Shown: positions 7,761 through 51,377, numbered from the stretch's first letter. The stretch: DNA of 64,000 nucleotides from a virus (IMGVR_UViG_3300046318_000318); one strand, 5' to 3'. Translations and numbers: made by a program. Notes: generated from the letters alone by a model not told the origin.

Positions 7761-7810
7761 GACTATCTCCTGTTAACCTGTATTCACGATATGCGAACTT
7801 GAACAGGCTA
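7761..7810 (-). promoter_or_regulatory. Internal copy of the structured leader (no promoter motif upstream)
   Basis: Transcript AGCCUG-UUCAA-GUUCGC-AUAUC-GUGAAU-A-CAGGUU-AACAGGAG; same two-stem, 5x1 loop architecture as the cassette leaders. Confidence 0.65.
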
Positions 7811-7896
7811 ATAATCCCTTTTTGCTGGCCAAGCGTCAGGGCAGGTTTTGGCCCAACTATTTATTTAAAGAGGTTAGTTGTCAACCTCTTGGGAAG

Positions 7897-7983
7897 TCAG
7901 CGACGTGTCGTCACTGCTTCCCAAATGATGAAAGGCGTTGTGATCGCCGCAAAGGCGATCACTGCAATGTCAATCATATCCAT
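7897..7983 (-). CDS. Cassette 1 first cargo: 28-aa hydrophobic peptide MDMIDIAVIAFAAITTPFIIWEAVTTRR
   Basis: ATG at the same SD spacing (GAGGAG-TACATT-ATG) as in the other cassettes; below the ORF-track cutoff. Confidence 0.65.
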   Translation of the reverse strand: MDMIDIAVIAFAAITTPFIIWEAVTTRR

Positions 7984-8078
7984 AATGTACTCCTCAGCTG
8001 ATAGCTAGATCAAAAACAATCTATTAAACTACAGCTATACATCAAGTTAAGTATATATGACTGAAATCTTTTACAAGG
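7984..8078 (-). promoter_or_regulatory. Cassette 1 putative early promoter + structured leader + SD
   Basis: CTTGTAAAAGATTTCAGTCATATATACTTAACTTGA...AGCTGTAG-TTTAA-TAGATT..GATCTA-G-CTATCAGCT-GAGGAG; near-identical to 11971..12064. Confidence 0.85.
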
Positions 8079-8252
8079 TCAAGAAAGCACTCTAGCTTCT
8101 CTCACAGAAGATATCATCCTATACCCACCCATGCGCAAAGGTTTGGTAGGTTCTGTATAGATCTCCAGAACTTTATCTTCCTTCTTGGCCTGCTCGATAA
8201 GCTCACTCACCACTTTTTCAAACTCTTCACGGGTCTTGATATTTTCAAACAT
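8079..8252 (-). CDS. Small hypothetical protein (57 aa, MFENIKTREEFEKVV...)
   Basis: Hand-translated ORF directly downstream of sbcC with an AAGGAAAG SD. Confidence 0.55.
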   Translation of the reverse strand: MFENIKTREEFEKVVSELIEQAKKEDKVLEIYTEPTKPLRMGGYRMISSVREARVLS

Positions 8253-8263
8253 GATTCTTTCCT

Positions 8264-10762
8264 TTACATTAAAGCAGGTTCAGTAAAATCTACACAGTTG
8301 TTATACCCACAACCTTTAGGTATCACCACGTTGTTAGGACATAGTACCACCACGTCTGCATTGGCTATACTGCCATAGCTGTCTTCATAATGGGATATTA
8401 GAAAGACTTGACTATGATTAGAGTTAGTCATCAGGTCAGTTACGGTGTTGAAAGCTGACTTTCTGTGAGCAGAATCCATGTTAACGGAAAACTCATCTAA
8501 GAACAAAGGTGCCTTATCCAGCTTTAGGTATTTCATAGACACTCTCATGAAAGCCATGTCTATCACTTCCTTCATAGCAGATGATCCCAGACTTACATCA
8601 GAGATATCGTTCTTATCATTGACTTTGACTTGAAACTTATAATCAAGTTCTAATTCATCGTCTAGTTGAAAGACAGGTTGTATCTCAAGAGGATATAACC
8701 AGACTTTCTTGATAATAGCGTTCATCTGTATAACGAAATGATTGATGAAGTTAATCAACCCTTTAGCGATAAGTCCTTCAGTAGGACTTAACTCTTTGAG
8801 CATGATCTTATACACTTCAGCCTGTTCTTGATACTCAGCTATCTGTTTCTCTATAGAGGTAAGCAGAGCTGCTTGGATATCTATCCTGGACACCATCTGA
8901 GTCAAACTAGCCAGTTCAGACTTAACCAACCTGATACAAGAAGTTATAAAATCTTGGCTAATAGTTTTCTCTATGTCTCTTACAGCTGAGCTATGGGCTG
9001 TCTGTAGATTAAACAGCTCTTGTTTCTTGAGATCTAGATTTTCTACGATGGCTATAGACTTAAGTAAGGATTGTTCTTTTACTTTGCTTCTTCTGATTTT
9101 TACCTGATAGTCCTGAGCAGACAGTTCTAATTTAGCATACTTGATCTTAAGGGCGGATAGGTCGTTACTTTGATTCTCAGCTGTGATCTGTTTGATCTTA
9201 GATAATTCAGCTAACTTATCTATAGAGAGATTGAGTTGTTTCTGTTTGTCCAGTTCCTGACTGTATGTCTGGATCATCTGTCTTACGCCTATAGGAGCCG
9301 TTCTCAGAGAACCATAAGACATGATGTGTTTCCACATGCTGTCTAAAGCTTCTACTTGTGTCATGAGTTTAAGAAACTGACTCATCAAAGTTAGATATTC
9401 AAACTGTTCAGCTTTTACACTCTCTAACAATTTAATCTGAAGTTCCAACACAGGTATGTCTTTATCCAATATTTCTCTGGATCTCAAACATTCATCATAC
9501 AGAGACTGAGAGAAACCTTTGAACCAAGTATGTTTACAGTTAGGGCAGCTAACTTCGTTATGTTGTTTAGCGTGGTCGTACTCCTTTAACTGAGTAAAGA
9601 GTTTATCAGAAGCAAATCTGGTGTTGTTAAGCTTCAGATTAAGATCTGCCAAAGCCTGAACATTACTCTGATAGCTTTCTTTTGTGTAACCTTTGTTAGC
9701 ATGCTTATACATCTCTGTCAGATACTCATCTAACTGAGGTTTAACAGAAGATAAAGCAGCAGATACAACATCAGGGTTTTTAACAATAGGGAAACTCAGT
9801 TGTTTATGCAACTGATCTATTTCATCTTGTATAGACTTAAGGCTCACATCTAGATCTTGAAAAGAAGCTAAGTTGTTCTGTTCCAACATGGATATAGACT
9901 TGCTCTGTTCATCCATCTCTTGATAGACCTTATGCAGAAGAGTCTCTAAAGACTTGATATCTGATTTAACAAATAACAAATCATCGAGTATTTCTTGCTT
10001 ACCCACATAGTTTTCTGGATTAATAAACTTGTTTCTATCTTGAACAGTATCTGTAGCTGCTTTCCTAAGTTTGAGCTGTATGGTATCAAAATCAGAAAGT
10101 GTGCTTGCCTTTAAGATAGACTGATCTGTTTGAGAAAGCAATCCGTCTAAGAACATGTTCAAATGACGTATGTCTTCTCTGTATTTGATATGCTCTTGCT
10201 CATTAGGCAGCTTGTTAGTCTCCTGCACTAATCTAGCTTGCTGTAGTTTGACAGCTCCTTGTATATCTCGGTACTGTTCTTTAAGCTTGTTGTAGAAACC
10301 TATAGCAAAGGTGTAATCACAATCAGCTATCTGGGTAAACCACTTTCTTCTCTCAGCCACAGACATCTTACTGAACTTAACTCTACCTGTCATAAGCCCA
10401 TGTACATCTGGAGTGATGTTAAACTCTTTTCTGACAAGTTCTTTAAACACAGTTACTGTGTGTCCAGGATTAAGCTCTTCCCCATCTTTACAAAAAGAAA
10501 ACTTATTACCCAGAGCTGTGAAGTCACTCTTTAAGGTATAGGTGCTTCCGTTGTGCTGGTAGGTTATATGTTTGTAACCTGACTTCTTATACTCAGAAGC
10601 TTCAGCAGGCAGAGGGCTCAATTCTTTAATCAAGCTGCTTTTACCAGATCCGTTACTACCAAGAATCAGCTGTATTTTTTTATCTGGGCTGTATTTGAAA
10701 TACTCTATAGAGTTCAAAGACATTCTCTCGTAGCCTTTAATCACCACTTCTTTTATCTGCAT
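8264..10762 (-). CDS. sbcC: SbcC/Rad50-like SMC ATPase (phiKZ gp165-like)
   Basis: Walker A GSNGSGKS, CPNC zinc hook in coiled coil, signature SLGSSAM, Walker B LFLDE. Confidence 0.9.
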   Translation of the reverse strand: MQIKEVVIKGYERMSLNSIEYFKYSPDKKIQLILGSNGSGKSSLIKELSPLPAEASEYKKSGYKHITYQHNGSTYTLKSDFTALGNKFSFCKDGEELNPGHTVTVFKELVRKEFNITPDVHGLMTGRVKFSKMSVAERRKWFTQIADCDYTFAIGFYNKLKEQYRDIQGAVKLQQARLVQETNKLPNEQEHIKYREDIRHLNMFLDGLLSQTDQSILKASTLSDFDTIQLKLRKAATDTVQDRNKFINPENYVGKQEILDDLLFVKSDIKSLETLLHKVYQEMDEQSKSISMLEQNNLASFQDLDVSLKSIQDEIDQLHKQLSFPIVKNPDVVSAALSSVKPQLDEYLTEMYKHANKGYTKESYQSNVQALADLNLKLNNTRFASDKLFTQLKEYDHAKQHNEVSCPNCKHTWFKGFSQSLYDECLRSREILDKDIPVLELQIKLLESVKAEQFEYLTLMSQFLKLMTQVEALDSMWKHIMSYGSLRTAPIGVRQMIQTYSQELDKQKQLNLSIDKLAELSKIKQITAENQSNDLSALKIKYAKLELSAQDYQVKIRRSKVKEQSLLKSIAIVENLDLKKQELFNLQTAHSSAVRDIEKTISQDFITSCIRLVKSELASLTQMVSRIDIQAALLTSIEKQIAEYQEQAEVYKIMLKELSPTEGLIAKGLINFINHFVIQMNAIIKKVWLYPLEIQPVFQLDDELELDYKFQVKVNDKNDISDVSLGSSAMKEVIDMAFMRVSMKYLKLDKAPLFLDEFSVNMDSAHRKSAFNTVTDLMTNSNHSQVFLISHYEDSYGSIANADVVVLCPNNVVIPKGCGYNNCVDFTEPALM

Positions 10763-11970: not shown

Positions 11971-12064
11971 AATACACTCCTCAGCTGATAGCTAGATCAA
12001 AAGCAATCTATTAAACTACAGCTATGTATCAAGTTAAGTATATGTGATTGAAATCTTTTATAAG
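11971..12064 (-). promoter_or_regulatory. Cassette 2 putative early promoter + structured leader + SD
   Basis: CTTATAAAAGATTTCAATCACATATACTTAACTTGA...GCTGTAGTTTAATAGATTGCTTTTGATCTAGCTATCAGCTGAGGAG. Confidence 0.85.
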
Positions 12065-12075
12065 CCGAATAAAAA

Positions 12076-20605: not shown

Positions 20606-21361
20606 TTAAGACTCCTGTGTAGGCAGAGGCTGTGCCTGAGCAGGCTGTGCTATTTTCTGAGCTTCGGGGGTCTCATCAAAAGGTGGTAGATTCCATTCAT
20701 TATCCCAGATCTTACCCATGAGTTCTTTTTCAGCTGGTACTTGAGAACTACCCAACATACTTTTCTCAGGTTTAAAGGGAAGATGAGAAACCTTCAGGAT
20801 AACTCTAACAGGTTTACCCTCAGACTTTTCATTGATCAAAGGCAGTATGGTATCTAACTCCACATCGATCTTACACCATTCAGACTCAGTACCGTCTTTC
20901 TTCTTATAGACATCTACTTCATAGGTCAGATTAGGCAAGACGATGACAGTCGTAGATCCGTCTTCTTTAACCAACTTCATCTCTACAGATTTAGAGTGGA
21001 AGACGTATCTGGATTTTTTTAAACGTTTCTTAGCTACGTTTCTGAAACCTTCAAAGAAGTCTTGATCTATAGCAATATTATACTCTGTGTTGTTTTGCAG
21101 AGCCTTATCACCATCCTTCTTAACCTTGTATGTAAAAGTATAAGAAGTCTCAGTATTCTTAACTTCTTTTCTAACCCTACATCTGACACCGTTCATGAAC
21201 TCACTTTCGATTTGTTCTTGTTCGATGACCTGAGAGGCTTGTTTCAAACCTTCGGGATTGGTAATGTGAGCATAGATAGCTACTTCGATTTCACTGTTTA
21301 ACTTACTTTGATTAACAGCATCATCTTCAAAAGCTAACTGCAGCATGTTAAATAATTTCAT
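20606..21361 (-). CDS. CYTH-like (triphosphate tunnel) protein, probably head-packaged
   Basis: EIEV, RCRVRK, KSRY, EVDVY, KIDVE motifs; N-terminal LAFED possible cleavage site. Confidence 0.6.
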   Translation of the reverse strand: MKLFNMLQLAFEDDAVNQSKLNSEIEVAIYAHITNPEGLKQASQVIEQEQIESEFMNGVRCRVRKEVKNTETSYTFTYKVKKDGDKALQNNTEYNIAIDQDFFEGFRNVAKKRLKKSRYVFHSKSVEMKLVKEDGSTTVIVLPNLTYEVDVYKKKDGTESEWCKIDVELDTILPLINEKSEGKPVRVILKVSHLPFKPEKSMLGSSQVPAEKELMGKIWDNEWNLPPFDETPEAQKIAQPAQAQPLPTQES

Positions 21362-21371
21362 AGATATCCTT

Positions 21372-22085
21372 TTACCACTTTGAGAAAGCTGGTTTGTGCT
21401 CTAAAGAAAGTAAAGCAGCAGATATTTTCTTTACTTCTTTGAACTCTTTCTCAGAGATCGCTGTGTGTAAAATTTGCCGCTTAGGTAAGCTGTGATTCAC
21501 CACAAGCTTATGGTAACCCTTAGGTAAGAACAGATCATCTTTATAGAAGAGTCCTTCTGGGTTCTCTATTTCTACAAACCAGGTAATTATGATCGCACTG
21601 TTGACTAGACCACCTTTACCTTGTAGGAGTAAATCTGCAAAAACTATTTTACCTACTGTACGCTGATTGATGTTCGTGTGATCCTTGTCATACCCTACTA
21701 TCCAGTGCTCTCTTGTTCTATCAGCATCTGGTACCAGAGTCTTATCAGGTATCAGAGCAGCTTCAAAATCAAGTCTAGAAATGACATAGCCATTTTTGAA
21801 CTTATCAGAATCCATCAAAGTTTTATCAGCTAGGATGTCATCCAGAAAAACCGCATACCCGTTAAGACAATCTTCTATATTCATAGAAGCACTTATACGA
21901 GGTACTGTTCTATCTTCCCCTGGTGTGGCCTTATAAGGCATTAAAGGATAGAAACTGTCAGGTGGATTCTTATCTATGCGTATTAAAAAAGGCTGAAGAG
22001 TCTGTGTCTTATCCACCACAGTGAAGTTTTTCAACTTCTGAGGAGTTTGATTCTTTATGTATTCCTTGAGATTATCTTTAGACAT
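21372..22085 (-). CDS. Hypothetical, probable head protein
   Basis: EDRTVPRIS motif; C-terminal SLEHKPAFSKW. Confidence 0.6.
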   Translation of the reverse strand: MSKDNLKEYIKNQTPQKLKNFTVVDKTQTLQPFLIRIDKNPPDSFYPLMPYKATPGEDRTVPRISASMNIEDCLNGYAVFLDDILADKTLMDSDKFKNGYVISRLDFEAALIPDKTLVPDADRTREHWIVGYDKDHTNINQRTVGKIVFADLLLQGKGGLVNSAIIITWFVEIENPEGLFYKDDLFLPKGYHKLVVNHSLPKRQILHTAISEKEFKEVKKISAALLSLEHKPAFSKW

Positions 22086-29852: not shown

Positions 29853-29946
29853 GAGTATCTCCTTAACTGATAGTGTCGCAGAAAGAACGACTTAAACCAC
29901 AGCGATAGCTCAAGTTAAGTGTACGTGATTGAAATATTTTCTAAGG
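29853..29946 (-). promoter_or_regulatory. Cassette 3 putative early promoter + structured leader + SD
   Basis: CTTAGAAAATATTTCAATCACGTACACTTAACTTGA-GCTATC-GCTGTGG-TTTAA-GTCGT..GCGAC-A-CTATCAGT-TAAGGAG. Confidence 0.85.
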
Positions 29947-29980
29947 CGAGAAAAAGAAAAACACCGAGGTGTTTTTCTTT

Positions 29981-35223: not shown

Positions 35224-35316
35224 GATTATCTCCTTAACTGATAGTGTCGTAGAAAGAACGACTTAAACTACAGCGATAGCTCAAATAGAATATATGTGAT
35301 TGAAATTATTTACAAG
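35224..35316 (-). promoter_or_regulatory. Cassette 4 putative early promoter + structured leader + SD
   Basis: CTTGTAAATAATTTCAATCACATATATTC...GCTGTAG-TTTAA-GTCGT-TCTTTCT-ACGAC-A-CTATCAGT-TAAGGAG; near-identical leader to cassette 3. Confidence 0.85.
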
Positions 35317-35371
35317 AACTTATTTAGAAAAAAGATACACACAGCCTCATGGCTGTGTGTATTTTAATCTA

Positions 35372-38934: not shown

Positions 38935-39070
38935 GAATGACTTCCTTATTAGGGTTAAATCTGTTAGTTTTCTCTAAGTATTTTGTACTGAGCCAAACTA
39001 TAAGTCTGCTAGTTATTTAGATATTCGAGGCAAAAAAAAAAGATACCAGGGATGTCCCTGGTATCCTTAA

Positions 39071-39517
39071 TTAAGATTCTGTCGGAAAGTCATATACCAA
39101 GGTTTCATCCTGTTTAGATACCTCAGGTGCCTTAGGCGTGATCTTAGTAACTTTCAGATCGATAGGTTCACAAGGCTTAGTGATATGCTCATACAAAGCA
39201 CTCTCAAAGGCTGTTAGCATATTCTTAAACTGAGTCTTCAGTTTTTTATAGATAAAGATCCTCTGTTCTTTATCCCTAACGATAATAGTGAAGACATCAC
39301 TGGTAACGTTGGCTGTGACGATGCTGTAGATATTCTTACGCTTCAGAAACTTATGTTCAGCTGAGTTAACTTTGATGCTTCTCATCATACCTACAGACAC
39401 AGGCTGTTTGTCATCGTAAGAGATAGAGATAGACATCTGATCGATATTCTTAACAGAAGCTTGAAACAGATTGCTAAAGGCCATTAAGTTAAGACCGTGA
39501 GATTTAAGGATTTGCAT
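39071..39517 (-). CDS. Hypothetical protein
   Basis: 148-aa ORF flanked by terminators at about 39030-39066 and 39584-39619. Confidence 0.6.
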   Translation of the reverse strand: MQILKSHGLNLMAFSNLFQASVKNIDQMSISISYDDKQPVSVGMMRSIKVNSAEHKFLKRKNIYSIVTANVTSDVFTIIVRDKEQRIFIYKKLKTQFKNMLTAFESALYEHITKPCEPIDLKVTKITPKAPEVSKQDETLVYDFPTES

Positions 39518-39583
39518 AATATTTTACTAAGGATGAATTGAGACGACTAATCTATATAACTTTAGTCTAAATAAAAAAGGGAA

Positions 39584-39619
39584 AAAAGAAAAGGACCCCC
39601 GGAAGGGTCCTTTTCTTCT
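39584..39619 (-). terminator. Terminator after major capsid gene
   Basis: aagaaaaggacccc-cgga-agggtccttttctt with A-tract. Confidence 0.75.
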
Positions 39620-39648
39620 ATTAGAGGCAATATTACTATCGCCTAAAC

Positions 39649-41790
39649 TCAAACGAGTTTGTAGTTGATTTGCACTTTATTAAGTACAGCAGGTACGTTG
39701 TTCACAACGAAGGTCGTCATGATAGGCAGGTGTGTCACGAATGCGTAACGTGGCTGCACAACGGTCTCTTTGCTGTAGGTGTTACCACGGCTCAGATTAG
39801 CAGTCATCACCAACTCAGGACCCCAGATCATGTTGCCGAAGTTCAATGGGTTAGGAGCAGTGTTACGCTGCTCGTTGAACACACCGAAGGTCATGAAGAT
39901 CTTACCAGCAACACGGCTATCAAGGGTAGAGACGATGCGAACATCAAACTCACCACCCAACGTACGCAGGTCACCAGACACGTTCAAGTAACGAGCCAAC
40001 ACTGGATCTGTGCCGATGATCACGACTGGTACAGCAGAGATACCACCGCTCAGAGCGTCGGCAGCAGCCTTGTACTCGGAGTCACGATACATGCGGTAAG
40101 CGTAATCACGCAGCTTGTTCACCAGAGCAGCTTGCATGTCTTGAGCGCGTTCGAACGACTTGATGGAGTCCACCATGGTCGCCATATCCAGAGTTTCCTG
40201 GAAGTAGGTAGGACGCACAAAGAAACGACCCACACCCAACACGTCAGGACCTTCACCCAACACGTCAGCAGCATCCACATATTGAGCCAAGGTACCAGCA
40301 GCGTCGATCAGAGCAGAAACTGCTTCGTTAGACACGCGGATACGAGTAGCGCTGATCAGAGCTTGCACGTCGGTAGCGTCGACAGAAGCGTCGACCACAG
40401 CAGGATGCATAGCAGAGATAGGCGAACGCAATGGCACAGCGTACAGTTGCGTGAACTTGGTCACGTCGATCAACTGACCGCGTTGACGACGGTTGATGTT
40501 CGTGTAGAAAGCAGTCAGGTCGTAACCTTCAATGGTACCAGCGTTGACCACTGCGACCACAGGAGCGGCAGGAGCAACAGCTTGATCCAATTGCTGACCA
40601 GTAGAGTCCAGAATGACGTGAGTCTGCACAGCGTTACCGTAGATAGAAGTCTTACCGGTTTCGATGTTCACAGAACCAGTCAACTTCAGCTCAACGCGAG
40701 CAATCAGGTTACCAGTAACCACACCAGCCAGATCCACCAGAGCAGAACCGTCAGCTTGCTTGGTATCGCGGTTGATCAGAACGCTCGTGGTTTCGAAGTT
40801 CAGAGTCATCACGCGATAATTGTTTTGCGTGCTGTATGTGAAGTTAGCCAAAGGTAGGTTCGACACATTGAAGCGCAGAACGTCAGCACCGAACTTGACA
40901 TACACGTTCTTGAGGTTCAAGAAGGTGTCCAGAGTGTCGGTGTTGTCCATCACGCCAGTGGCCAGCAGAGCATCAGTTTGACCCACGGCGATCAGGTTCA
41001 GTTCTTTACCGATCTTCAGAGGAGCGGTGGTGATAGATTGACCTTCGACGATCACAGCAGCAGGAGCTACGACAGCAGGATCCACGAACTGAGCGGCGTT
41101 TTGAGGACGCACAGCTGGAATCACGCGGGTCTGTTCTTTCTTCAGGATCGAAGCATCGGCCACAGCACGGATGATGTTCTTCTTACCAAAATCACGGAAT
41201 GCGCCGTCGATGTTGTGTTGAGTTGCGTCAAACACAGTCATCAGATCCACGGTCACGCCAAAACCAACTTGGTCAGGAGTCAGAACCAGAGTAGGGAAGA
41301 AGGTTTCGCCAAACTCGTCTTGACGAGCAGACTGCATGTTGTAAGCGATCGAGTAGATCGAAGCATTGCGGTTCTCGCGCTCGTCATAAGCTTCCAGACC
41401 GAATGCACGCTCAGACATACCTTCAGCAGCACCCATGGTTTGCACAACCACAGCACCTTCCATAGCCACAGGGCTAGAGATGGTCTTGCGGCTCAGCAGA
41501 TGGCGTGGGTCAGCAGCGATCATACCGCCGATAGAACCAGCAGCGATTTGAGCGGGGGTGAGTTTGTAACCCAGACCCAGGTCAGCCACGATCGATTCGA
41601 TAGCGGTGCTCAGACCTTCATGTACATTGTTCAGTTCAGCCAATTGGAAGTCTTGTGCAGATTCCAGGGCAAACATGGTCTTGGTAGACTCAGGAGTAAC
41701 CATGCGACCACCTTCAACGGTGTTACGCAGATGCACCAGCAGTTGCTGAACTTGGGTTTTTTGTTGACCCGTGGATTTACCAAATTTCAT
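39649..41790 (-). CDS. Major capsid protein (phiKZ gp120-like)
   Basis: 713 aa; propeptide with ALES/AIES/AMEG/GLEAY sites; YSIAYNMQSARQDEFGETFFPT motif; strong codon bias. Confidence 0.9.
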   Translation of the reverse strand: MKFGKSTGQQKTQVQQLLVHLRNTVEGGRMVTPESTKTMFALESAQDFQLAELNNVHEGLSTAIESIVADLGLGYKLTPAQIAAGSIGGMIAADPRHLLSRKTISSPVAMEGAVVVQTMGAAEGMSERAFGLEAYDERENRNASIYSIAYNMQSARQDEFGETFFPTLVLTPDQVGFGVTVDLMTVFDATQHNIDGAFRDFGKKNIIRAVADASILKKEQTRVIPAVRPQNAAQFVDPAVVAPAAVIVEGQSITTAPLKIGKELNLIAVGQTDALLATGVMDNTDTLDTFLNLKNVYVKFGADVLRFNVSNLPLANFTYSTQNNYRVMTLNFETTSVLINRDTKQADGSALVDLAGVVTGNLIARVELKLTGSVNIETGKTSIYGNAVQTHVILDSTGQQLDQAVAPAAPVVAVVNAGTIEGYDLTAFYTNINRRQRGQLIDVTKFTQLYAVPLRSPISAMHPAVVDASVDATDVQALISATRIRVSNEAVSALIDAAGTLAQYVDAADVLGEGPDVLGVGRFFVRPTYFQETLDMATMVDSIKSFERAQDMQAALVNKLRDYAYRMYRDSEYKAAADALSGGISAVPVVIIGTDPVLARYLNVSGDLRTLGGEFDVRIVSTLDSRVAGKIFMTFGVFNEQRNTAPNPLNFGNMIWGPELVMTANLSRGNTYSKETVVQPRYAFVTHLPIMTTFVVNNVPAVLNKVQINYKLV

Positions 41791-41826
41791 TTCGAGTTCC
41801 TTAGTTGGTTTCAGAAAAGTTAACTG

Positions 41827-42438
41827 TCACAAAACGCTACCTTGAAGTTCTTTCAGGTAAACAGAATAAATGCCGAGGCTGGATGCTCTGCCGGACGACA
41901 TCATAGAATAGAACTGATCGACGCATTTTTTAGAAAAGTTAAATGCGCCTTTCTTGGTTTGGAGAGTATTGATAATACCCTCGTCGACGATAATGTAAAC
42001 GACGTGAGTGTCTTTTACGAATGTGTAAGTTTTAGACTCTATACCGAAAGCATCTTCAATCTCCACAACAGGCATTCCATCCTGCATTGTGGTTAGTCTA
42101 TTTCTCATGTATAGTTTATTTTCTTCCATACCAACTAAGGGTTGAACGGAATACTCCAGCTCTTTTAATTGCTCTGTGGTGAGATTTTGGAAATGACAAG
42201 ACAGTTTAAATCCATCGAACCAAAACAGATTCTTATTTCTGTATGTGGTGTATAAAGGACTAAAAGCCTCATCGACATAGGCCCAATCTCTCAGATCATT
42301 AAGCGATAGAACACCACGGACTTTACCGTAGTTTCTAAAATCCATAATATCTATTTTATTACGTATCAATATCTGATATATCCATCTGGGGATTGGACAC
42401 ACAACAGATGAATTCAAAAAAGGTATGTCGGTACTCAT
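41827..42438 (-). CDS. Conserved protein (phiKZ gp119-like; likely start MSTDI)
   Basis: Between MCP and DnaB as in phiKZ. Confidence 0.6.
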   Translation of the reverse strand: MSTDIPFLNSSVVCPIPRWIYQILIRNKIDIMDFRNYGKVRGVLSLNDLRDWAYVDEAFSPLYTTYRNKNLFWFDGFKLSCHFQNLTTEQLKELEYSVQPLVGMEENKLYMRNRLTTMQDGMPVVEIEDAFGIESKTYTFVKDTHVVYIIVDEGIINTLQTKKGAFNFSKKCVDQFYSMMSSGRASSLGIYSVYLKELQGSVL

Positions 42439-42522
42439 GGTTAAACCTCGGTGAAGATTTTTATCAGATAGGGCTATGTTATGTCTCGATCGTACCAAAC
42501 ACTTAAATAAGAAGATAAGTCC

Positions 42523-44061
42523 ATGGATGATAAACTGCTGCTTGCCAAAAGCATTACCCTCTTGTTTCGTGAAAGCCAGCTGAAACAGAAAACAGAAAAC
42601 AGTTCAGATCTGGTCAGAACCGTACTGGAAAGCATCAAGATTATTGACGACGCTTCTACTTTGAATGTAAACACAGACAAAGAAATTATCGTTCGGTTAA
42701 AAACCACAGTCCTTGAGATGTGTGGTTATCCACCAGAACATGAATACGATACCAACGCTCTGATTCAAACCATTAAGCACAACTGCATGTATGACAACAA
42801 TCTGTTTGAAGTCATACAGTCTGGTTTGCAAGACAATATTCCTGAGAGCAATCTGAAGCGCTCTATCGTTAACATCAGGAAGACAATTAATAACTATTTC
42901 AGAGAACGTAAGATCGGTGAAGTACTGAGTAAGTACAGCATGGACTTTCGTTACAAAAGAGATAGTATCAAAGATATCAACGGATATATCGCTGAACTCA
43001 TTAGTCAACTAGAACCTTTACAGCTGAACACAAGCTCTAAAGATCCTGCTGTGATGGGTGAGGTGGATCTGGGTAGCGATGAATCTTTGAGGGAAGTGTT
43101 CTCAGCTATCAAGCAGAATAATGAAGGTACTCGTATCTATAAGACAGGTTGGACTGATCTTAACGATATGTTGCAAGGTGGTATACGCCCAGCTGAGTTT
43201 ATCATAACCCCGGCACTCCAACATAAATACAAGACAGGTTTTAATCTTTCTTTATTTGCCCAAATTGCTAGATTGAACCAACCTAACAATATAGATCCGG
43301 GTAAGAAACCTTTATTGTTGAGGATCTCTTTTGAGGATGAGCTTGTAAACAATCTTCAGTTCTTGTATCAGTATCTTAAGTACAACGAGACAAGAGAATA
43401 CGTAAGTATGAAAGATCTGTCTGTTGAGGAGATGGCGTCTTACGTAAAGAAAGAGTTGCAACAAACTGGTTTCCATGTTAAAATGATGCGAGTGGACCCT
43501 ACTCAGTGGTCTTATCGCAACATCTGTAACAAAGTTATTGAACTGGAAGCCCAGGGTTACAGCATCGAAGGTTTGTTTCTGGATTATTTAGCTATGGTGC
43601 CTACGACAGGATGTATTACATCTGGTCCTATCGGTACAGACATGAGAGATCTGATCAGACGAGTGAGAAACTTTTGCGCTCCTCGCGGTACATTCGTAGT
43701 TACGCCTCATCAACTTTCTCCTGAGGCTAAAGCTTTGGTAAGAGGTGGTGTTGCAGAAGATCAGTTTGTGAAAGAAGTGGCTGAGAAAGGTTATACCTCT
43801 GGAAGCAGGCAGCTAGATCAGGAAGTAGACTTAGAAATCTACATCCATCTGGTTAAACACAATAGAGAGACTTATTTGACAGTACAGCGTGGTAAACATC
43901 GTTTACCTACAGTGATCAACGACGACTATAAGTATTTCATTTTGAAGTTTCCTAAGGGCATGCCTATCCCTGAAGATATCAACGAAATACAACATATTCC
44001 AATTAGAAAGCTTAGGTCAGTAGCTACCAACACAGACGAATCTTTGTTTCTACCTAGCTAA
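42523..44061 (+). CDS. dnaB: DnaB-like replicative helicase (phiKZ gp118-like)
   Basis: ALQHKYKTGF Walker A variant, SFED, FLDYL Walker B, PHQLS, QRGKHR. Confidence 0.85.
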   Translation: MDDKLLLAKSITLLFRESQLKQKTENSSDLVRTVLESIKIIDDASTLNVNTDKEIIVRLKTTVLEMCGYPPEHEYDTNALIQTIKHNCMYDNNLFEVIQSGLQDNIPESNLKRSIVNIRKTINNYFRERKIGEVLSKYSMDFRYKRDSIKDINGYIAELISQLEPLQLNTSSKDPAVMGEVDLGSDESLREVFSAIKQNNEGTRIYKTGWTDLNDMLQGGIRPAEFIITPALQHKYKTGFNLSLFAQIARLNQPNNIDPGKKPLLLRISFEDELVNNLQFLYQYLKYNETREYVSMKDLSVEEMASYVKKELQQTGFHVKMMRVDPTQWSYRNICNKVIELEAQGYSIEGLFLDYLAMVPTTGCITSGPIGTDMRDLIRRVRNFCAPRGTFVVTPHQLSPEAKALVRGGVAEDQFVKEVAEKGYTSGSRQLDQEVDLEIYIHLVKHNRETYLTVQRGKHRLPTVINDDYKYFILKFPKGMPIPEDINEIQHIPIRKLRSVATNTDESLFLPS

Positions 44062-44063
44062 AC

Positions 44064-44108
44064 AAAAAAAAATAACACCCTGGCCTTTTGGGCTGGGGTG
44101 TTATTTTT
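44064..44108 (-). terminator. Cassette terminator T5
   Basis: Identical to T3. Confidence 0.85.
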
Positions 44109-44109
44109 A

Positions 44110-44751
44110 TCAGCAGAGCACAGGCTGCTGAGAAGCTTTGAACTTCTCACGCATAGCTTGTACTCGCTCTTCTAACGACTCCAGAATTTCTGGATGGCCC
44201 AGAAGAGTGTCCGTCATTACCTGACGAATTTCCATCAAAGCGTAATACGCTTGTTGGAAACCAACCACAGATGCTGCGTAAGCATCTGCTTCCAGCTCAA
44301 AACGTTGAACGGATTTTGTTAATCCAGCATTTTCAAGACGGAACATATGCTGGTCTTTGAGATGGCCAAACTCATGTTCCGTGATGAACCTCAGTGTCTC
44401 TTCGGTATAGAGACCTTTCATGGTCAATACCAGATCGACCTTACCGATCGACATGGTCATCCCACCACCGAAATTTTTAACAAGCTCTGTGAGGTTTGTC
44501 ACAAAGACTTTCCCTGTTACAGGATGTCTTACCATAGTGGTCAGCCAATACCAATTTGGCATCTCGACCCACTTCACTTTTCTCCCGTTAGGGAGCTTGG
44601 CGGTCTTGCACCACCAAGTGGTGCAGCAGATGGTCAGGACAAGCCTGACCACTTGACTCTCCTTCAACCGGTCCCCGAACAGGGACCAACCGGTGGTCAA
44701 AGCCACAGCCGTGAAGAAAGTAACGCCAAGTACCAAAGAAAACTGTTCCAT
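44110..44751 (-). CDS. Cassette 5 cargo: membrane-anchored HExxH zinc metalloprotease (M48/M56-like gluzincin)
   Basis: N-terminal TM; HEFGH plus downstream ELEAD; SD spacing indicates start MEQFS at 44751. Confidence 0.7.
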   Translation of the reverse strand: MEQFSLVLGVTFFTAVALTTGWSLFGDRLKESQVVRLVLTICCTTWWCKTAKLPNGRKVKWVEMPNWYWLTTMVRHPVTGKVFVTNLTELVKNFGGGMTMSIGKVDLVLTMKGLYTEETLRFITEHEFGHLKDQHMFRLENAGLTKSVQRFELEADAYAASVVGFQQAYYALMEIRQVMTDTLLGHPEILESLEERVQAMREKFKASQQPVLC

Positions 44752-44843
44752 AACTATCTCCTTAGTCACAAGTTCGAAAGATGTTTCGATTAAACTGTAA
44801 CGATAGTCAAGTTAAGTATATGTGACCAAAATACTTTATAAGG
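44752..44843 (-). promoter_or_regulatory. Cassette 5 putative early promoter + structured leader + SD
   Basis: CTTATAAAGTATTTTGGTCACATATACTTAACTTGA...GTTACAG-TTTAA-TCGAAA-CATC-TTTCGA-A-CTTGTGAC-TAAGGAG. Confidence 0.85.
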
Positions 44844-44896
44844 ATATCTAGTTAACCTGGATATCTTTTGACTATAAACCTTAAGGACTTTACAAT

Positions 44897-45820
44897 ATGA
44901 ACGGTAAACTATATCAAGAAGAACAAAGTACAGCTTCTTCTAATGGTAAAGAGTACGATCTAAATATTCTATTTAAGAGAATTAAGAATAAACAATCTAT
45001 AGACATACCTATTGATAAACTCATATGGGTGTTAGAATATACAGTTATAGACGAACTAAGAGTTAAAAACGCTGATGTCTCAATTCCTATATTGATTTAC
45101 AATGACAAAAAAGATGGATATGTGACTATAGACGGAGCGCACAGACTGACCAAAGCTTTTAGATTAAAGATGAAAGTTATACCTGGTGTGATGTTAAGTG
45201 ATGAGGATATGGAAGCAGCTGAGATAAATAAAAAGAAAATAGCTTTGCTATCCGATAGTAATAATGTTTGGCAAATAGATTTTGGTCCTTCTTACACACC
45301 CAAAGAGATGTTAGAACTGGGTGTTTTTGAAGGTAAGTATGTCAACAACGTGAAAGGCATACCAGCTGACTGGAAGAAAAGTGATAAAGTATTAGGCTCT
45401 GATGATGAACCTGATCCCAGTGTTAATAAGTACGGAGTTAAATCAAGACAACCTTTATCAGTTTGGAAAAAGAACGATTGGATAAAAACAGACCCTAACG
45501 GATGGTTCGCTTGGTACTGTAATTATTATCTAGGTAGAAGACTAGGTGAAGAAGATGAATGGCAGATCAAACGCTGGAGAAGTTTTGTAGCTAGACATCA
45601 GGCTCAGATCAAAGCAGATCCCAAAGGACATCTTAAAGACAGACGCTTAGCTCAAAAGCAAGGTTTGTTACAATGGGCGTGGGATTGGGAACAGAACTTC
45701 ACTGATAAGAACGTAACTATCAACGCTAAAAGAATAGCTAAGTCTGCTGGCGCTAAGCTAGATAAAGAAGAACCAGCTTTAGAAAATATGATTCTGCCTG
45801 CTTTTGCCAGGTGGATTTAA
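44897..45820 (+). CDS. ParB/sulfiredoxin-like domain fused to a conserved Trp-rich domain of unknown function
   Basis: IDGAHRL ParB-like motif; FEGKY, DPNGWFAWYCNYYLGRR; C-terminal ALE...PAFARW. Confidence 0.6.
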   Translation: MNGKLYQEEQSTASSNGKEYDLNILFKRIKNKQSIDIPIDKLIWVLEYTVIDELRVKNADVSIPILIYNDKKDGYVTIDGAHRLTKAFRLKMKVIPGVMLSDEDMEAAEINKKKIALLSDSNNVWQIDFGPSYTPKEMLELGVFEGKYVNNVKGIPADWKKSDKVLGSDDEPDPSVNKYGVKSRQPLSVWKKNDWIKTDPNGWFAWYCNYYLGRRLGEEDEWQIKRWRSFVARHQAQIKADPKGHLKDRRLAQKQGLLQWAWDWEQNFTDKNVTINAKRIAKSAGAKLDKEEPALENMILPAFARWI

Positions 45821-45874
45821 ATATCAAATAGATCATATGCTCTCACCCTTTTCCATAACACGTAAGGTTTACAA

Positions 45875-46399
45875 ATGGCTAACGTTTTAAATTTCTCTAA
45901 AGTAACTGCACTGCCTGTTACTTTCAGTCCTTCCACTCTGTACCTTATTCCAGGTACCCTACCTGATGAGATGCATGTATATGTGTCTGATTCTACCGGT
46001 ACTTCTGTTAAGAAGATAATCGACAGAGATGACATCATCGGTCTGATTAACACCACAGCTCCCGCTGACAACATTGTCGGCATCATTAATTGCTTTGGTT
46101 CTAATGAGGTTGTTGCTACTGGTAATTACGTTGGGTTTTTAAATGCTCATAAAGTCTTTACCTTTGATAAAGTACGTGTGAGTCTTCGCACCCATAGCGC
46201 AGATGCTGATATTAACTTCACTCTTGAATCCAATATGGATCCAGCTTTTGCAGTAGGTACTTTACTAGCAGGTAATAAAACAGCTGAGTTAACAGGTCTT
46301 AACTACACCACGACTCTCAATGAGACTATCACTGTCTCTATAGCAAGCACAACCAATACCACAGGTAAAGGTTTGATAGCTCTTTTGATTAAATCATAA
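45875..46399 (+). CDS. Tail-cluster-type protein with LxFxKV N-terminal module
   Basis: N-terminus shared with 62008 and 62496 ORFs. Confidence 0.55.
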   Translation: MANVLNFSKVTALPVTFSPSTLYLIPGTLPDEMHVYVSDSTGTSVKKIIDRDDIIGLINTTAPADNIVGIINCFGSNEVVATGNYVGFLNAHKVFTFDKVRVSLRTHSADADINFTLESNMDPAFAVGTLLAGNKTAELTGLNYTTTLNETITVSIASTTNTTGKGLIALLIKS

Positions 46400-46411
46400 T
46401 CAGACATAAAC

Positions 46412-46443
46412 TCCTATCTAGCTCCCTAGGGAGCTAGATAGGA
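46412..46443. terminator. Perfect 32-bp palindrome, bidirectional terminator
   Basis: tcctatctagctccct|agggagctagatagga. Confidence 0.75.
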
Positions 46444-46455
46444 TTATGCTGTTAT

Positions 46456-46869
46456 TTAAAACGGTGGGTTGCTGTTCTGATGAGCGCGACGCATCAATTC
46501 ACTGAAAGAGATTTTGGCTCCATTCGAAGAACTATCTTGTTTGATAGCTTGACTAACAGGCGTCTGGATCTTGCTAGGTGGTACTTGCACGTATTCAGAA
46601 TCAGGCAATACTTTAGTTTCTTTGACCAAAGTCTTTACCTTGGGTTCTTTACGAGCCAGATCTTTAGCTGTTCGAGTAGGGGCTTTAGTGACCTCTACTT
46701 TAATAGCTTTTTTAGGGACTTTAGCAGCTGCTCCTAGTTTAGCAGCAGCTTTGACCACAGCTTTTTTCACAGCCGCTTTAGCAGCAGCTTTACTGATCTC
46801 ACTGATCATAGCTGCTTCGCTTACTTGTTTCTTAGCAGCTGGTTTAGCAATTTTCTTTGCGGTAGTCAT
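46456..46869 (-). CDS. Lys/Ala-rich histone H1-like protein
   Basis: AKKIAKPAAKK, KAAAKAAVKKAVVKAAAK. Confidence 0.6.
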   Translation of the reverse strand: MTTAKKIAKPAAKKQVSEAAMISEISKAAAKAAVKKAVVKAAAKLGAAAKVPKKAIKVEVTKAPTRTAKDLARKEPKVKTLVKETKVLPDSEYVQVPPSKIQTPVSQAIKQDSSSNGAKISFSELMRRAHQNSNPPF

Positions 46870-46870
46870 T

Positions 46871-47431
46871 TCATCTTCTCCTATAGGTGATGAAGTTATA
46901 TGTTAATAAGCCCTCACCTGTGAAGATAGGTGTTTGACTTTCCAGTTTAAAAAGATCATGAGGTACGGTAGGTACATAGACCGCATCCGTGAACATGTCT
47001 ACAAGATGTTGATGGTTCTTATAGATTTGTGTCAGATGTATAACATCTGCGTATTTAAATCCTTCATTGACAATCAGATCTCTACCGCCTATGATAAACA
47101 GCTTAGAGTCTTTACCCGTACGAGGGTTATTAGCAGTGAGTTTTAAAGCTTTGAACGCTTTGATGTATTCAACAGGATCACTTACTTTAAAAGTGAGTAA
47201 AGTGTTTACATTTTCATCTATGGGAATATCCCTAGATGTAACTATTGCATTTACACGATCTGGTAGAGATTTACCTATAGAGTCAAAGGTTTTTCTACCC
47301 ATCAAGACAGTTTCAAAAATAGTCATATCTTTGAAACGTTTGAGATCAGCAGATAGTTTCCAAGGGATCTTACCATCGATCCCTATAAGACCATCTACAT
47401 CCCTGGCGTAAATAAGTTCTACTGATGGCAT
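46871..47431 (-). CDS. folA: Dihydrofolate reductase
   Basis: GLIGIDGKIPWKLSADLKRFK, MGRKTFDSI, LPDRVN, FIIGG. Confidence 0.92.
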   Translation of the reverse strand: MPSVELIYARDVDGLIGIDGKIPWKLSADLKRFKDMTIFETVLMGRKTFDSIGKSLPDRVNAIVTSRDIPIDENVNTLLTFKVSDPVEYIKAFKALKLTANNPRTGKDSKLFIIGGRDLIVNEGFKYADVIHLTQIYKNHQHLVDMFTDAVYVPTVPHDLFKLESQTPIFTGEGLLTYNFITYRRR

Positions 47432-47432
47432 G

Positions 47433-47729
47433 TTAAGTAGCTACCGGGTAAGGTATGTGTGGATGTGGGTCGTATCCTTCCAGTTCAATATCTTCAGATT
47501 TGATCTTAAAGATATCTGTCTCGTCTGTTTTAAAGACAAGTCGTGGAAGAGATCTGGGCTCACGAGAGATTTGTTCATCTACCAAATGCAATTGATCTGT
47601 GTAGATATGTGTATCTCCAGTAGACCAAATGAACTCATTAGGTTCCATATCAACATGTCGGGCAATCAAATGCAACAGCAATGAATACTGAGCTATGTTG
47701 TAAGGGCTCCCTATAGGTGTATCGACTGA
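47433..47729 (-). CDS. thyA: Thymidylate synthase exon 2
   Basis: SVD..IGSPYNIAQYSLL, GDTHIY, YDPHPHIPYPVA; joins exon 1 in frame as QR|SVD. Confidence 0.92.
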   Translation of the reverse strand, partial: SVDTPIGSPYNIAQYSLLLHLIARHVDMEPNEFIWSTGDTHIYTDQLHLVDEQISREPRSLPRLVFKTDETDIFKIKSEDIELEGYDPHPHIPYPVAT

Positions 47730-48861
47730 CATTAATTAACTTCGGTGTGGTAAAACCAATCTTTGTATTTATCCTTTTTAACCCTGTGTGTCACTAAACC
47801 TTGCGATATTTTGAAATATCTAGAAGCATCAGCACATGAGTTAAAAAGAATTCCACCTGCAAATACCTTACGAGTGTTTGTTGGTGGGATACCTATTCTG
47901 TTTTCCCTAAGTTTTCTTTTTGTTTCTTCAGTATGTTTTCTATTGAAGAAAGAATTCTTAGAACCGGTTCTTAAACGTTGACGTGCTCTGATTTTTTCAA
48001 TTTGTTCTTCAGAAAGTTTACAACCTTTGTTGTAGCTATGACCTTTATGCATTAAAGATATAAGCTTTCTGGTTTCAACTGAATGTTGTCTTCCAAACAT
48101 TCCATTAGCTGAACCATTTTTACCCCAAAGGTTTTTTCTTTCTAAAACAGACATTGACGCTATATTTTTAGCTTGTGTTTTGTTTCTTCTGTCTAATATG
48201 TCATCACGTTTTGGATGATTAGATAAAGAATTGCCAAATTTAGAATTTAAACTTATATTAGCCAGTAGGTTTTTATTCAGACCTGTGTATGACTTTATTA
48301 TAAGCTTTTCCTCTAATTGAAAAGCTTCTTCCCTAGAACTACACGGAATAGAGGAAACTTTATAATCAGTTCCTTCACACCATGCTTCTTGTAAACGCAG
48401 ATTATGGTGATTGTTTCTTTTCAACGACCTAAAATGAGTTCGAAGTCTTTTCTTTAAATTTGACGTACTACCTATATAAAACACACCTGTTTTTGTTAAT
48501 GTGAGTATATAAACACAAAAATCATTACTGTTCATATAGATTCCTCGTTAGGATTACCATATAATGAACACAGCACTGCTTTACATCTCTGTAAAGATAG
48601 ATCATATCACCACCTTCAGCCTTACCTGTTAAGGGTTCCCCGTTTCGAAGCGATTCACATCGGTTCTACGTCTTTCGACTGATCGTTGAACTTTCTCCAG
48701 TTTAAAGGAGCTTAGCTGCTGATTGTCTCTACCTACTAATTTTCAAACACGTTACGTATGTGTTTTCACACTCCGCTTTGGTTTAGTAGTCTAACAAGGG
48801 TTTCCAGCAATTAGAGGAATTTTCAAATAGGTATTTCTACCTATACAGCGCTCAGTTATTA
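47730..48861 (-). ncRNA. Group I intron in thyA
   Basis: P1 CAGCGU/GCGCUG with U.G at the splice site; P10 ACUGA/UCAGU; P AAUUGCUGGAAA, Q AAUCAGCAG, R UCAACGAUCA, S GAUAUGAUCU (P7 GAUCA/UGAUC); P9 CUUUACA-GAGA-UGUAAAG; terminal G at 47730. Confidence 0.9.
47732..48535 (-). CDS. Intron-encoded GIY-YIG homing endonuclease
   Basis: CVY-x10-YIG, KKRLRTH, FQLEE, NUMOD3-like HSVETRKLIS/HTEETKRKL, C-terminal HTH. Confidence 0.9.
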   Translation of the reverse strand: MNSNDFCVYILTLTKTGVFYIGSTSNLKKRLRTHFRSLKRNNHHNLRLQEAWCEGTDYKVSSIPCSSREEAFQLEEKLIIKSYTGLNKNLLANISLNSKFGNSLSNHPKRDDILDRRNKTQAKNIASMSVLERKNLWGKNGSANGMFGRQHSVETRKLISLMHKGHSYNKGCKLSEEQIEKIRARQRLRTGSKNSFFNRKHTEETKRKLRENRIGIPPTNTRKVFAGGILFNSCADASRYFKISQGLVTHRVKKDKYKDWFYHTEVN

Positions 48862-49710
48862 ACGCTGGAACATAAGTAGGTTCAAACGCTTCTTACCACC
48901 TTCATTGAGAGCAGGTTGTACAAAGCATTGGAACATAACATGGCATGGTGCCAAAGCACCCATACCCAACAATACATTCAGATCAGGAGAAATCTTATTG
49001 TCAGGAATGAATTGTGGTAACCATGAGCTTACCACAAGACGTGAAGAATAAGGATTGTTTTTCAGTTCAGCCAGAAGAATACCTAATTGATCTACCTTAG
49101 AGACATAAGTCTTCTGAATGAAATCAGTCTCTGTGACGGGATCTGTTCCATCATCTTCTGCTTCTTTATAAGCAAGATATTCTTTATAAGCTTCTTTAAA
49201 AGCTTCTACTTTATCAGAAGGAATATCTTCGATAGGTGGTTTGTTTCTGAGAAGTTGGTGAATGTTACTCATCTCATCAGCAGGGGCATGGCGCCAGTTA
49301 AAGCCGTACAAAGGACCGATAGATCCGATACGCTCACTGATCTGTTCACGAAGTTTAGCCATGAGCATTTCATTACCGGCCATACTCTGACGATCTTCTT
49401 CTGATTCAAACTTAGACAAGAAATATTCCATGAACTTATCCACTGTTTTTTCAGTGACAGCCCAGTTATCCCAGATATGCACATTTGCTTCATTCAGCAA
49501 AGTGTTATCAATCTCACCAGCGATAAACCAAAGCAATTCTTCTTTCATACCTCGAAAGAAGATCTTACGAGTAGTGACCAAAGGAAAACCATCACTCATG
49601 TTGAATCGGACTTGTCTACCGAAGATAGATCGACGACCTACGCCGGTACGATCGGGATGATCATGTCCATTGTCACGGATATCCTTGAGGAGTTCTATAT
49701 AAGTCTTCAT
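48862..49710 (-). CDS. thyA: Thymidylate synthase exon 1
   Basis: DRTGVG, EELLWFIAG, HIWDNW, GPLYG..WR, SRLVVSSW, ALAPCH, ends MFQR. Confidence 0.92.
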
Positions 49711-50340: not shown

Positions 50341-50802
50341 TTAGGTTAAAAAACGTTTCCATTCATAAGGCATCCAGCATCTCTCTATGCCTTTAAACAT
50401 AGGAGCTATCTGCTCATGCTTATATCCAGCTAACCCTGTGCCTACCGCTGTGACAAAAAAAGTTTTGTCTTTGAGTATAGTGGTTACTATTCTAAAGGTC
50501 TCTACTCTTTTCTCTATTTCTTCTAGCGGTAGAGGTTGCAGCATATGTGACTTAGTAGGTAAGGCATAACAGTTACCCATTCTACCCTCACCTACACCGT
50601 AGATAGCTCCATAGTCTGTAGCAGCTTTAAGAGCAGCACCTTTACCATGTCTACCAGCTAGGTTAGAACCAAATACAAAAAGTATACTTGGGTAGAGGAT
50701 AATGTTGTTCTCAGGAAAGTAATATTTGACACCTTTTTCAATAGGTAGAAGTACAGTGTCATACTTCTTCATCATCTCAAAATCTATTTCAAAATTTGAC
50801 AT
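50341..50802 (-). CDS. Macrodomain-like protein
   Basis: FVFGSNLAGRHGKGAA and VTAVGTGLAG resemble the two glycine-rich macrodomain loops. Confidence 0.6.
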   Translation of the reverse strand: MSNFEIDFEMMKKYDTVLLPIEKGVKYYFPENNIILYPSILFVFGSNLAGRHGKGAALKAATDYGAIYGVGEGRMGNCYALPTKSHMLQPLPLEEIEKRVETFRIVTTILKDKTFFVTAVGTGLAGYKHEQIAPMFKGIERCWMPYEWKRFLT

Positions 50803-50839
50803 ATTTGTTTTCCATAATCAAAAAATGAAAGCTGTGAAT

Positions 50840-50883
50840 AAAAAAATAACACCCCCGGCCTGTGAGGGCTAGGGGTGTTATTT
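50840..50883 (-). terminator. Cassette terminator T6
   Basis: Identical to T2. Confidence 0.85.
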
Positions 50884-50884
50884 A

Positions 50885-51283
50885 TCAAGCTTGATGTGTG
50901 ATCCAAGCTTGAAGAGCCTGACCCATGGCCAGCTCTTCAGCACGTCCTGATCTCACATCAGGGAACTTTACATGGACCATGAACCACTTGATCGTGGCTC
51001 CTTCGGGCAATGTGGTTGCCCCTTCGGGCAGTCGTGGTCCAGAATATTGACCAACAATGATTGTCTCATTGCTGGTCAGGTCCACGGTCACCCGTGCAGC
51101 GGGGATTTCCACCCCCAGCTGCTGAGAAAATACAGAAGCTGTGTCGGCATGACCGACACAGCTTTCCACCCCTACCTCCAAAAACTCCTTGACTTCAGCC
51201 GGAGTGATTTGGATCACTTTGATGTCGGCGATGAGCGCCGACACCATGTTGAGACTGAAAGCGTTGCAAATTTTAATTGCCAT
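50885..51283 (-). CDS. acrIII-1: Cassette 6 cargo: DUF1874/AcrIII-1-like cyclic oligoadenylate ring nuclease
   Basis: NAFSLNM, SCVGHADTA (catalytic GH), LGVEIPAARVTVDL, GPRLPEG, as in the STIV B116 / SIRV1 gp29 / YddF family. Confidence 0.75.
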   Translation of the reverse strand: MAIKICNAFSLNMVSALIADIKVIQITPAEVKEFLEVGVESCVGHADTASVFSQQLGVEIPAARVTVDLTSNETIIVGQYSGPRLPEGATTLPEGATIKWFMVHVKFPDVRSGRAEELAMGQALQAWITHQA

Positions 51284-51377
51284 GAGTATCCCCTTAACCA
51301 GCAGTGTTACAGATGTGTAACTTAAACCACTAGCGATATCTCAAGTTAAGTTTATGTGATTGAAATATTCTCTAAGG
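51284..51377 (-). promoter_or_regulatory. Cassette 6 putative early promoter + structured leader + SD
   Basis: CTTAGAGAATATTTCAATCACATAAACTTAACTTGA...CTAGTGG-TTTAA-GTTACA-CATC-TGTAAC-A-CTGCTGG-TTAAGGGG. Confidence 0.85.

Follow-up and report, generated by a model that had tools for sequence, protein, structure and literature searches.

What is the element that recurs seven times on one strand of a giant-phage genome fragment, each time just before a start codon, with stems that change in sequence around a small loop that does not? The question is raised by a stretch of viral DNA of 64,000 nucleotides (hereafter the window), in which a first-pass annotation had described copies of a structured RNA directly upstream of the Shine–Dalgarno sequence (SD) and had read them as a protein-binding motif of early mRNAs. 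Among the genes of the window is one for a major capsid protein of phiKZ type (Pfam PhiKZ_MCP, E = 7e-178); the closest GenBank phage capsid is only 42% identical to it, and at the nucleotide level the window matches no GenBank phage. The sequencing runs that contain it are freshwater metagenomes, and the phage is uncultivated. Judged from its sequence, the source is a giant phage of fresh water with kinship to phiKZ. How the early messages of giant phages are translated, protected or shut off is a largely open field; those with their own polymerases turn on early genes without host factors.

Related sequences came from several sources. A 120-kb IMG/VR contig (G001) is 90–96% identical to window positions 163–55682 over most of that span, has two stretches that are ~77% identical, and extends ~63 kb further. 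A pattern scan supplied two more related contigs, G012 (113 kb) and G013 (36 kb; ~73% identical over 21 kb). Matches from the first IMG/VR pattern scan were nearly all due to chance, and a scan of metagenomes gave two real copies only, on short contigs: L190, with one new leader copy, and L186, with a duplicate of the C1 leader. Logan contigs of four metatranscriptome runs (X20, X23, X24 and X25) over window positions 29300–49299 are short and cover mostly the capsid gene; one such RNA contig spans the C3 promoter, and the contigs are too sparse for 5′ ends.

Seven leaders on one strand

All seven hairpins are encoded on the minus strand, each ending 12–14 nt before an ATG, and the 3′ arm of every one runs directly into GGAG or GGGG (Table 1); the sequences quoted in the first-pass annotation were all found in these positions. 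A structure descriptor (P1 of at least 5 bp, TTYAA, P2 of at least 5 bp, one opposing base) gives exactly seven minus-strand matches in the window, plus two unrelated plus-strand matches, against a chance level in Markov shuffles of 0.65 for both strands together, or ~0.3 per strand. With filters off and every window position searched, a covariance model likewise returns seven copies only, the next match having E=0.6. C1 and C2 are near-duplicates, as are C3 and C4, so that the window holds five independent versions. A descriptor match at window 46447–46486 (+), conserved at G001 8319–8358 (−), adjoins a long inverted repeat; it lacks both SD and promoter and probably has nothing to do with the motif.

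Drawn from the G of TTGA through AUG, the seven leaders have identical topology in their minimum free energy (MFE) and centroid structures. The layout of C1 is representative of the labels used below: P0 (GAUACAU/GUGUAUU), P1, the UUUAA bulge, P2 and an SD bulge, GAGGA. Folding energies are only modestly better than those of shuffles (z from -1.0 to -3.8); the value of -3.8 belongs to the operon-internal copy, 'int', which forms a complete P0–P1–P2 fold and is without a promoter box. Elsewhere in the window, a group I intron at 48579–48871 (−) (Rfam RF00028, 67.4 bits; gathering score 50) sits between ORFs 47732–48535 and 48859–49710.

Table 1. Leaders and promoter boxes in the window (positions counted from its first nucleotide)
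Feature	Position	Hairpin	Strand	Remarks
Leader C1	11968..12030	12023-11983	-	66-aa ORF downstream; MFE = centroid, -17.1 kcal/mol
Leader C2	7981..8043	8036-7996	-	P0 GAUGUAU/GUACAUU; 28-aa ORF downstream
Leader C3	29850..29911	29903-29866	-	162-aa ORF downstream
Leader C4	35221..35282	35274-35237	-	Just 4 codons downstream (MAGA, stop)
Leader C5	44749..44808	44801-44765	-	213-aa ORF, weak Peptidase_M48 match
Leader C6	51281..51342	51333-51298	-	132-aa STIV_B116-like (DUF1874/AcrIII-1-type) ORF
Leader 'int' (operon-internal)	7758..7816	7809-7775	-	Loop UUCAA; 107-aa ORF downstream
C1 promoter box	12029..12068		-	CTTATAAA..ATTTCA..CACATATAC-TTAACT-TGA
C2 promoter box	8042..8081		-	
C3 promoter box	29910..29949		-	
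C4 promoter box	35281..35320		-	Variant ..CATATATTCTATTTGA
C5 promoter box	44807..44846		-	
C6 promoter box	51341..51380		-	

A covarying core with an invariant bulge

Compensatory changes maintain the core P1 / G-C + U(Y)(Y)AA + purine / P2 in a set of 32 copies spread over five related contigs. These copies, 28 of them distinct, come from covariance model R2 applied to the window and four related freshwater phage contigs; the model also scores the G001 orthologue of 'int' weakly, and it misses a variant copy at G001 111839. Plain MAFFT misaligned the copies, and rows padded with N or with anchors were used together with model-based alignments. Among the 28 distinct sequences in the model-based alignment, 90.0% of pair cells are paired (62.9% in shuffles) and 109 cells carry double changes (36 in shuffles), with changes on both sides at 12 of 13 pairs: all six in P2 and six of the seven in P1. 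A manual ungapped alignment gives 93.4% of cells paired, against 60.3% after shuffling and 23–39% with slid partners, and there 13 of 14 pairs change on both sides. From an unsupervised MAFFT alignment, RNAalifold derives both helices, P1 and P2, as well as the G-C and U-R pairs. The covariation proposed from the seven window copies thus holds in the larger set of 28. P1 or P2 modules are common to several copies, however, and chimeric hairpins exist; with modules shared through recombination, independent compensatory events must be fewer than the cell counts suggest.

About 11% of the paired cells among the distinct sequences are G.U, which become A.C mismatches on the other strand, and the fold therefore belongs to the sense strand. 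This bears out the description of a structured element in transcript sense whose stems vary while pairing is kept.

The loop varies far less than the stems. It is UUUAA (GUUUAA with the preceding base) in 27 of the 28 distinct sequences; the window 'int' copy has UUCAA instead, and its G001 orthologue UCUAA; the base opposite is always a purine, A in 25 and G in 3. The UUYAA strand and the opposing purine had been singled out as the only conserved parts: both are indeed kept, but the G-C pair adjoining the loop is invariant as well (28 of 28). Conservation also reaches beyond the bulge to the 5′ flank (GA..UAUC) and the GGAG-to-AUG spacer, and a second, weaker conservation is seen in the apical loops of P2, which often close with (A/U)UC, the next base being U (CAUC, UAUC, UCUC, UUUC). 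Both RNAfold and RNAalifold pair the first U of the loop with the opposing purine; the 5×1 internal loop of the first-pass drawing is therefore acceptable, but a U-R pair with a 4-nt bulge fits equally well. An invariant bulge amid variable stems is, as had been argued, the pattern that one would expect of a specific recognition site. Pairing of the bulge UUAA with the SD or with the promoter was considered and set aside, as it is not conserved between copies.

Helix P0 and the ribosome site

The hairpin is predicted to be the upper part of a longer fold. Below it, about two-thirds of copies have a helix P0 between the predicted first bases of the transcript and the 6–7 nt that separate GGAG from AUG, and the SD region, (U)AAGGA, is then left as an unpaired bulge of 5–6 nt on the 3′ strand. 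The earlier outline of P1, bulge and P2 is thus present but incomplete, as it lacked the helix that places the SD in a bulge. Sixteen of the 19 leaders folded (from the window, G001, L190 and L186) form the full P0–P1–P2 rod, and in most full rods the first base pairs with the base directly before AUG. P0 positions are paired in 89% of cases, compared with 72% in shuffles and 21–46% with a slid partner, and four of its seven pairs change on both sides. Between C1 and C2, P0 shows a double compensatory swap, in which AC on one strand is replaced by GU and GU on the opposite strand by AC; further P0 sequences, such as AGAGU/ACUCU, occur in G012 and G013. The stack of P0, P1 and P2 measures ~21 bp, falling to 13–15 bp in the roughly one-third of all copies that are without P0. 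In the G001 orthologue of 'int', P1 and P2 are retained, a C-G pair of the window being U-A there, and P0 is lost because the different cargo of this locus starts right after the SD.

The core stands at a fixed distance from the start codon: in the 19 leaders measured, 43–45 nt separate the loop from AUG. The hairpin lies 13–16 nt from the predicted transcription start, and the whole predicted 5′ untranslated region (UTR) comprises 56–60 nt. With the native leader, the SD hexamer has a probability of 0.63 of being unpaired, against 0.38 for leaders whose upstream part was shuffled (p = 8e-5). The energy needed to open the ribosome site is 11.0 kcal/mol in the native leader and 9.6 in shuffled ones; this slightly higher cost means that the fold could repress translation rather than aid it.

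Promoter boxes and the predicted start

A 40-nt box precedes 15 copies in the window and G001. Its 3′ segment, CACATATAC-TTAACT-TGA, together with upstream ATTTCA and CTTxTAAA blocks, aligns with ..TTTaAacagTATATTAC-N5-TGA of phiKZ; the phiKZ counterpart, cagTATATTAC-N5-TGA, was drawn from 42 TATATTAC sites of NC_004629 and compared with the 15 boxes here. The boxes share the layout of phiKZ early promoters, with an AT-rich −10 element, TGA 5–6 nt on, and conserved −20 and −30 blocks, and by this alignment the leader box is homologous to those promoters (TATATTAC-N5-TGA). Conserved −10, −20 and −30 blocks are described for early promoters of phiKZ and 201phi2-1 (PMC11512511, PMC8244752), and phiKZ-type transcription starts 6 nt after the promoter element (PMC5312081). 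The blocks of the leader boxes fit with a start at the G of TGA; given the homology, the start should lie upstream of P1. We infer that the virion RNA polymerase begins its transcripts at the G of TTGA, in which case the 5′ end would be base-paired. In two more distant contigs with the same promoter type, G006 and G002, it is a start at exactly that G that gives the first four bases their highest predicted pairing (0.65 and 0.95, respectively; 0.35–0.38 for random starts). A Bacteroidota-type −33/−7 promoter was also considered and is ruled out by spacing, and the best −35/−10-like hexamers, TTGTAA and TATACT, stand only 15 nt apart and do not form a sigma70-like promoter.

The presence of this box 5′ of the motif supports the placing of the copies in the leaders of putative early mRNAs. 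The accompanying statement, that a TTTaA motif occurs in the initially transcribed region of phiKZ early promoters, proved mistaken: the TTTaA of phiKZ lies in the −20 box, upstream of TATATTAC, and TTTAA occurs downstream of just 8 of the 42 TATATTAC sites, at no fixed position. Promoters of this type also occur without the motif, as six matches in G001 and ~20 promoters in G006, so the motif is not needed for initiation.

Distribution of the motif

Covariance model searches found no match in G002, G003–G005 or G006, none in another seven loci, each partial, from related IMG/VR contigs, and none in phiKZ; of four other jumbo contigs searched over their full length, three had no match and one had a single weak match (E=0.65). 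The suggestion that the motif might be traced through the Chimalliviridae is thus not borne out: it is not general, with phiKZ and the distant relatives lacking a match, and in G006 and G002 the promoter type is present and the motif absent. The likeness to phiKZ lies in the promoters, in box and layout; phiKZ early leaders differ in being short, in matching no model, and in having no enriched 5′-terminal pairing (0.38 vs. 0.33), which for phiKZ also rules out a general Chimalliviridae habit of 5′-terminal stems. Searches of Rfam with the whole window and with single leaders brought no copy to a gathering score, the best local match being Mu-gpT-DE with 19 bits against a gathering score of 49. 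An integron attC-like reading was rejected, as the core departs from GTTRRRY and there is no evident integrase.

Cargo genes and cassette exchange

The genes behind the leaders are mutually unrelated and mostly without assigned function. STIV_B116-like genes (DUF1874, AcrIII-1-type) follow the leader at C6 and at G001 21153, and at least these two cargo proteins are probably anti-defence ring nucleases. Leaders and cargo do not always travel together. L186 carries the C1 leader with a different cargo, and the cargo of the 'int' locus differs in G001. The C4 cassette (window 35191–35223, −) has a full promoter and leader with only its four-codon ORF, and at the same locus the 93%-identical relative G001 holds a second STIV_B116-like gene, at 21153–21491 (L150:1153–1491); the window phage therefore appears to have lost this cargo.

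Several further observations may be recorded here. A variant leader at G001 111839–111945, with UUCAA, P1 starting from the first transcribed base and no P0, precedes, as does its equivalent at G012 46874, a conserved 18-codon ORF (MEVHEITLTEVEWLFYFG / MEAYEIILTEEEWNFFFG). G012 has at least eight cassettes with paralogous cargo starting MT(I/V)VTN..G.F.YNEK.E.HR.DGP (32153, 33424, 46108, 68359, 73144, 97132, 97594 and 113051); the P1 5′ arm and promoter are lost at 97594, and the hairpins at 97132 and 113051 are chimeric, with P1 broken. In the window, the 28-aa ORF of C2 and the 'int' leader are separated by a terminator-like hairpin at 7817–7900 (−), AGAGGUU..AACCUCU with UUUAAAU behind it.

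Comparison with known systems

Hairpins with a sequence-specific bulge beside the ribosome site and otherwise free stems are known as the MS2 and PP7 coat-protein operators and as domain 2 of the thrS operator. The leaders described here resemble them in being bulged hairpins with variable stems that adjoin the ribosome site; unlike them, they are common to many unrelated genes rather than belonging to one autoregulated gene. The ompA leader exemplifies the 5′-terminal stabilizer stem-loop, a class of hairpins to which sequence-invariant bulges do not belong. Here too the predicted first nucleotides are paired, but their partner is the SD–AUG spacer, the fold spans the whole UTR, and an internal copy exists. 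A conserved element in early leaders is also mentioned for another phage with its own multisubunit polymerases, and the comparison extends to that mention alone.

The organization as cassettes recalls the PeSL units of T4-type phages, in which a sigma70-type promoter is combined with a terminating stem-loop; these conserved regulatory units are short, border small accessory genes that are unrelated to one another, and mark sites of gene exchange between close relatives (PMC2839356, PMC4122927). The present leaders likewise stand at boundaries of gene gain, loss or replacement (L186, the 'int' locus and C4). They differ in that the promoter is phiKZ-type and the hairpin, with its invariant bulge, lies between the start site and the SD; nor are they terminators, as there is no U-run and the 3′ arm runs into (U)AAGGAG and then AUG.

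The five-base loop also invites comparison with the T-loop, which has the pattern Y-N-N-R-A with two bulged bases after position 5 (bioRxiv 10.1101/2022.12.26.521914) and, in three dimensions, a reverse-Hoogsteen 1–5 pair with a base intercalated between positions 4 and 5. UUUAA, UUCAA and UCUAA all fit Y-N-N-R-A, the Watson–Crick G-C pair precedes the five bases in all 28 distinct sequences, and UUCAA agrees with the tRNA consensus UUCRA. The two bulged bases of the terminal-loop form are missing, however, since P2 starts directly after the second A, and the apparent fit is only a lead. One further reading, which we regard as a long shot, is that G-C, UUUAA and purine make up a self-contained T-loop-like platform, with the purine filling the gap between positions 4 and 5, that would act as an address label on early accessory mRNAs read by the ribosome or a phage protein. 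If so, a factor would recruit, release or silence the gene set in the first minutes of infection by a nucleus-forming phage.

Function of the leader and rival explanations

The function that we consider most likely, on the sequence and predicted structure, is that of a portable translation and stability module in which the bulge would be a recognition site. Stated in full (a cis-acting RNA leader forming the 5′ UTR of early accessory cassettes, whose rod protects the 5′ end and displays the SD and whose bulge is contacted by a common factor), the proposal seems to us evenly poised between right and wrong. Under it, the virion RNA polymerase would start at the G of TTGA and so produce a paired 5′ end; the rod would shield that end from 5′-end-dependent decay and would show the SD in the same way whatever cargo comes next. 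The invariant bulge, perhaps with the semi-conserved apical (A/U)UC, would be contacted by one common factor, for which a phage protein, a host protein or the 30S subunit are candidates, and which would set the translation or lifetime of the gene set coordinately.

It is conceivable that the module is passive, the rod merely protecting the 5′ end and insulating the SD while the bulge is kept for folding or geometry alone. The predicted pairing of the 5′ end, the measurable effect on SD display and the use of other 5′-terminal hairpins, without this bulge, by related clades would all suit such a role. A passive rod has no need for sequence, though, yet the G-C pair and the purine are retained throughout and GUUUAA almost throughout, while every stem position varies; and the 'int' copies, which are not at a 5′ end, keep everything. 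We count this reading as unlikely, though far from negligible. Processing offers another route: T7 early R sites, coaxial duplexes of about two turns interrupted by an internal loop, and adhE are precedents for cleavage of the RNase III type, and cutting by RNase III or another double-strand-specific nuclease could free the SD from P0 and turn translation on. With P0, the helix would amount to about two turns with asymmetric bulges, and copies lie just 5′ of the SD, whether they follow a promoter or stand within an operon. RNase III would not need an invariant UUUAA, however, the copies without P0 leave only the shorter stack, and no processed ends are visible among the sparse RNA contigs, which makes a cleavage site improbable.

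The remaining alternatives move the action away from the message. A nascent hairpin might act on the polymerase, by put-like antitermination or a programmed pause, instead of on translation; its fixed distance from the predicted start and the terminator-like hairpin just 5′ of the window 'int' copy would be in keeping with this, but the spacing to AUG is equally tight, P0 involves the SD–AUG spacer, and the motif is absent from phages that share the promoter type. We think it very improbable. That the element works as DNA, whether used by the virion polymerase as a hairpin (an alternative already raised in the first-pass annotation) or as a downstream promoter element, or serving as a structure-specific recombination site for cassettes, is in our view hardly credible: constant promoter spacing, swapped cargo and the chimeric hairpins of G012 could be cited for it, yet the G.U cells make the structure strand-specific, 'int' copies occur without a promoter and promoters without the motif, and the position is tied to the SD and AUG. 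The swaps are in keeping with homologous recombination of the ordinary kind, and no recombinase is apparent.

On the preferred reading, of a translation and stability module with a recognized bulge, a covarying leader with a small invariant bulge would provide a concrete, mutable handle for finding the factor. A compact natural unit of promoter, leader and ribosome site that works with unrelated cargo may also interest phage engineers.

A different leader type in G002

In G002 (loci L155–L162), eight early leaders are built differently, for example at 5511, 42290, 81563 and 117575 (−). Their order is a promoter ending in TGA, a conserved 5′-terminal hairpin (GAUCUUAGCC..), the stretch ACCYUUUC, a covarying hairpin and GGAGGUG; the ACCYUUUC stretch is partly complementary to the SD. 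The same contig has seven tandem copies of a ~177-bp repeat at 69690–70755 (−).
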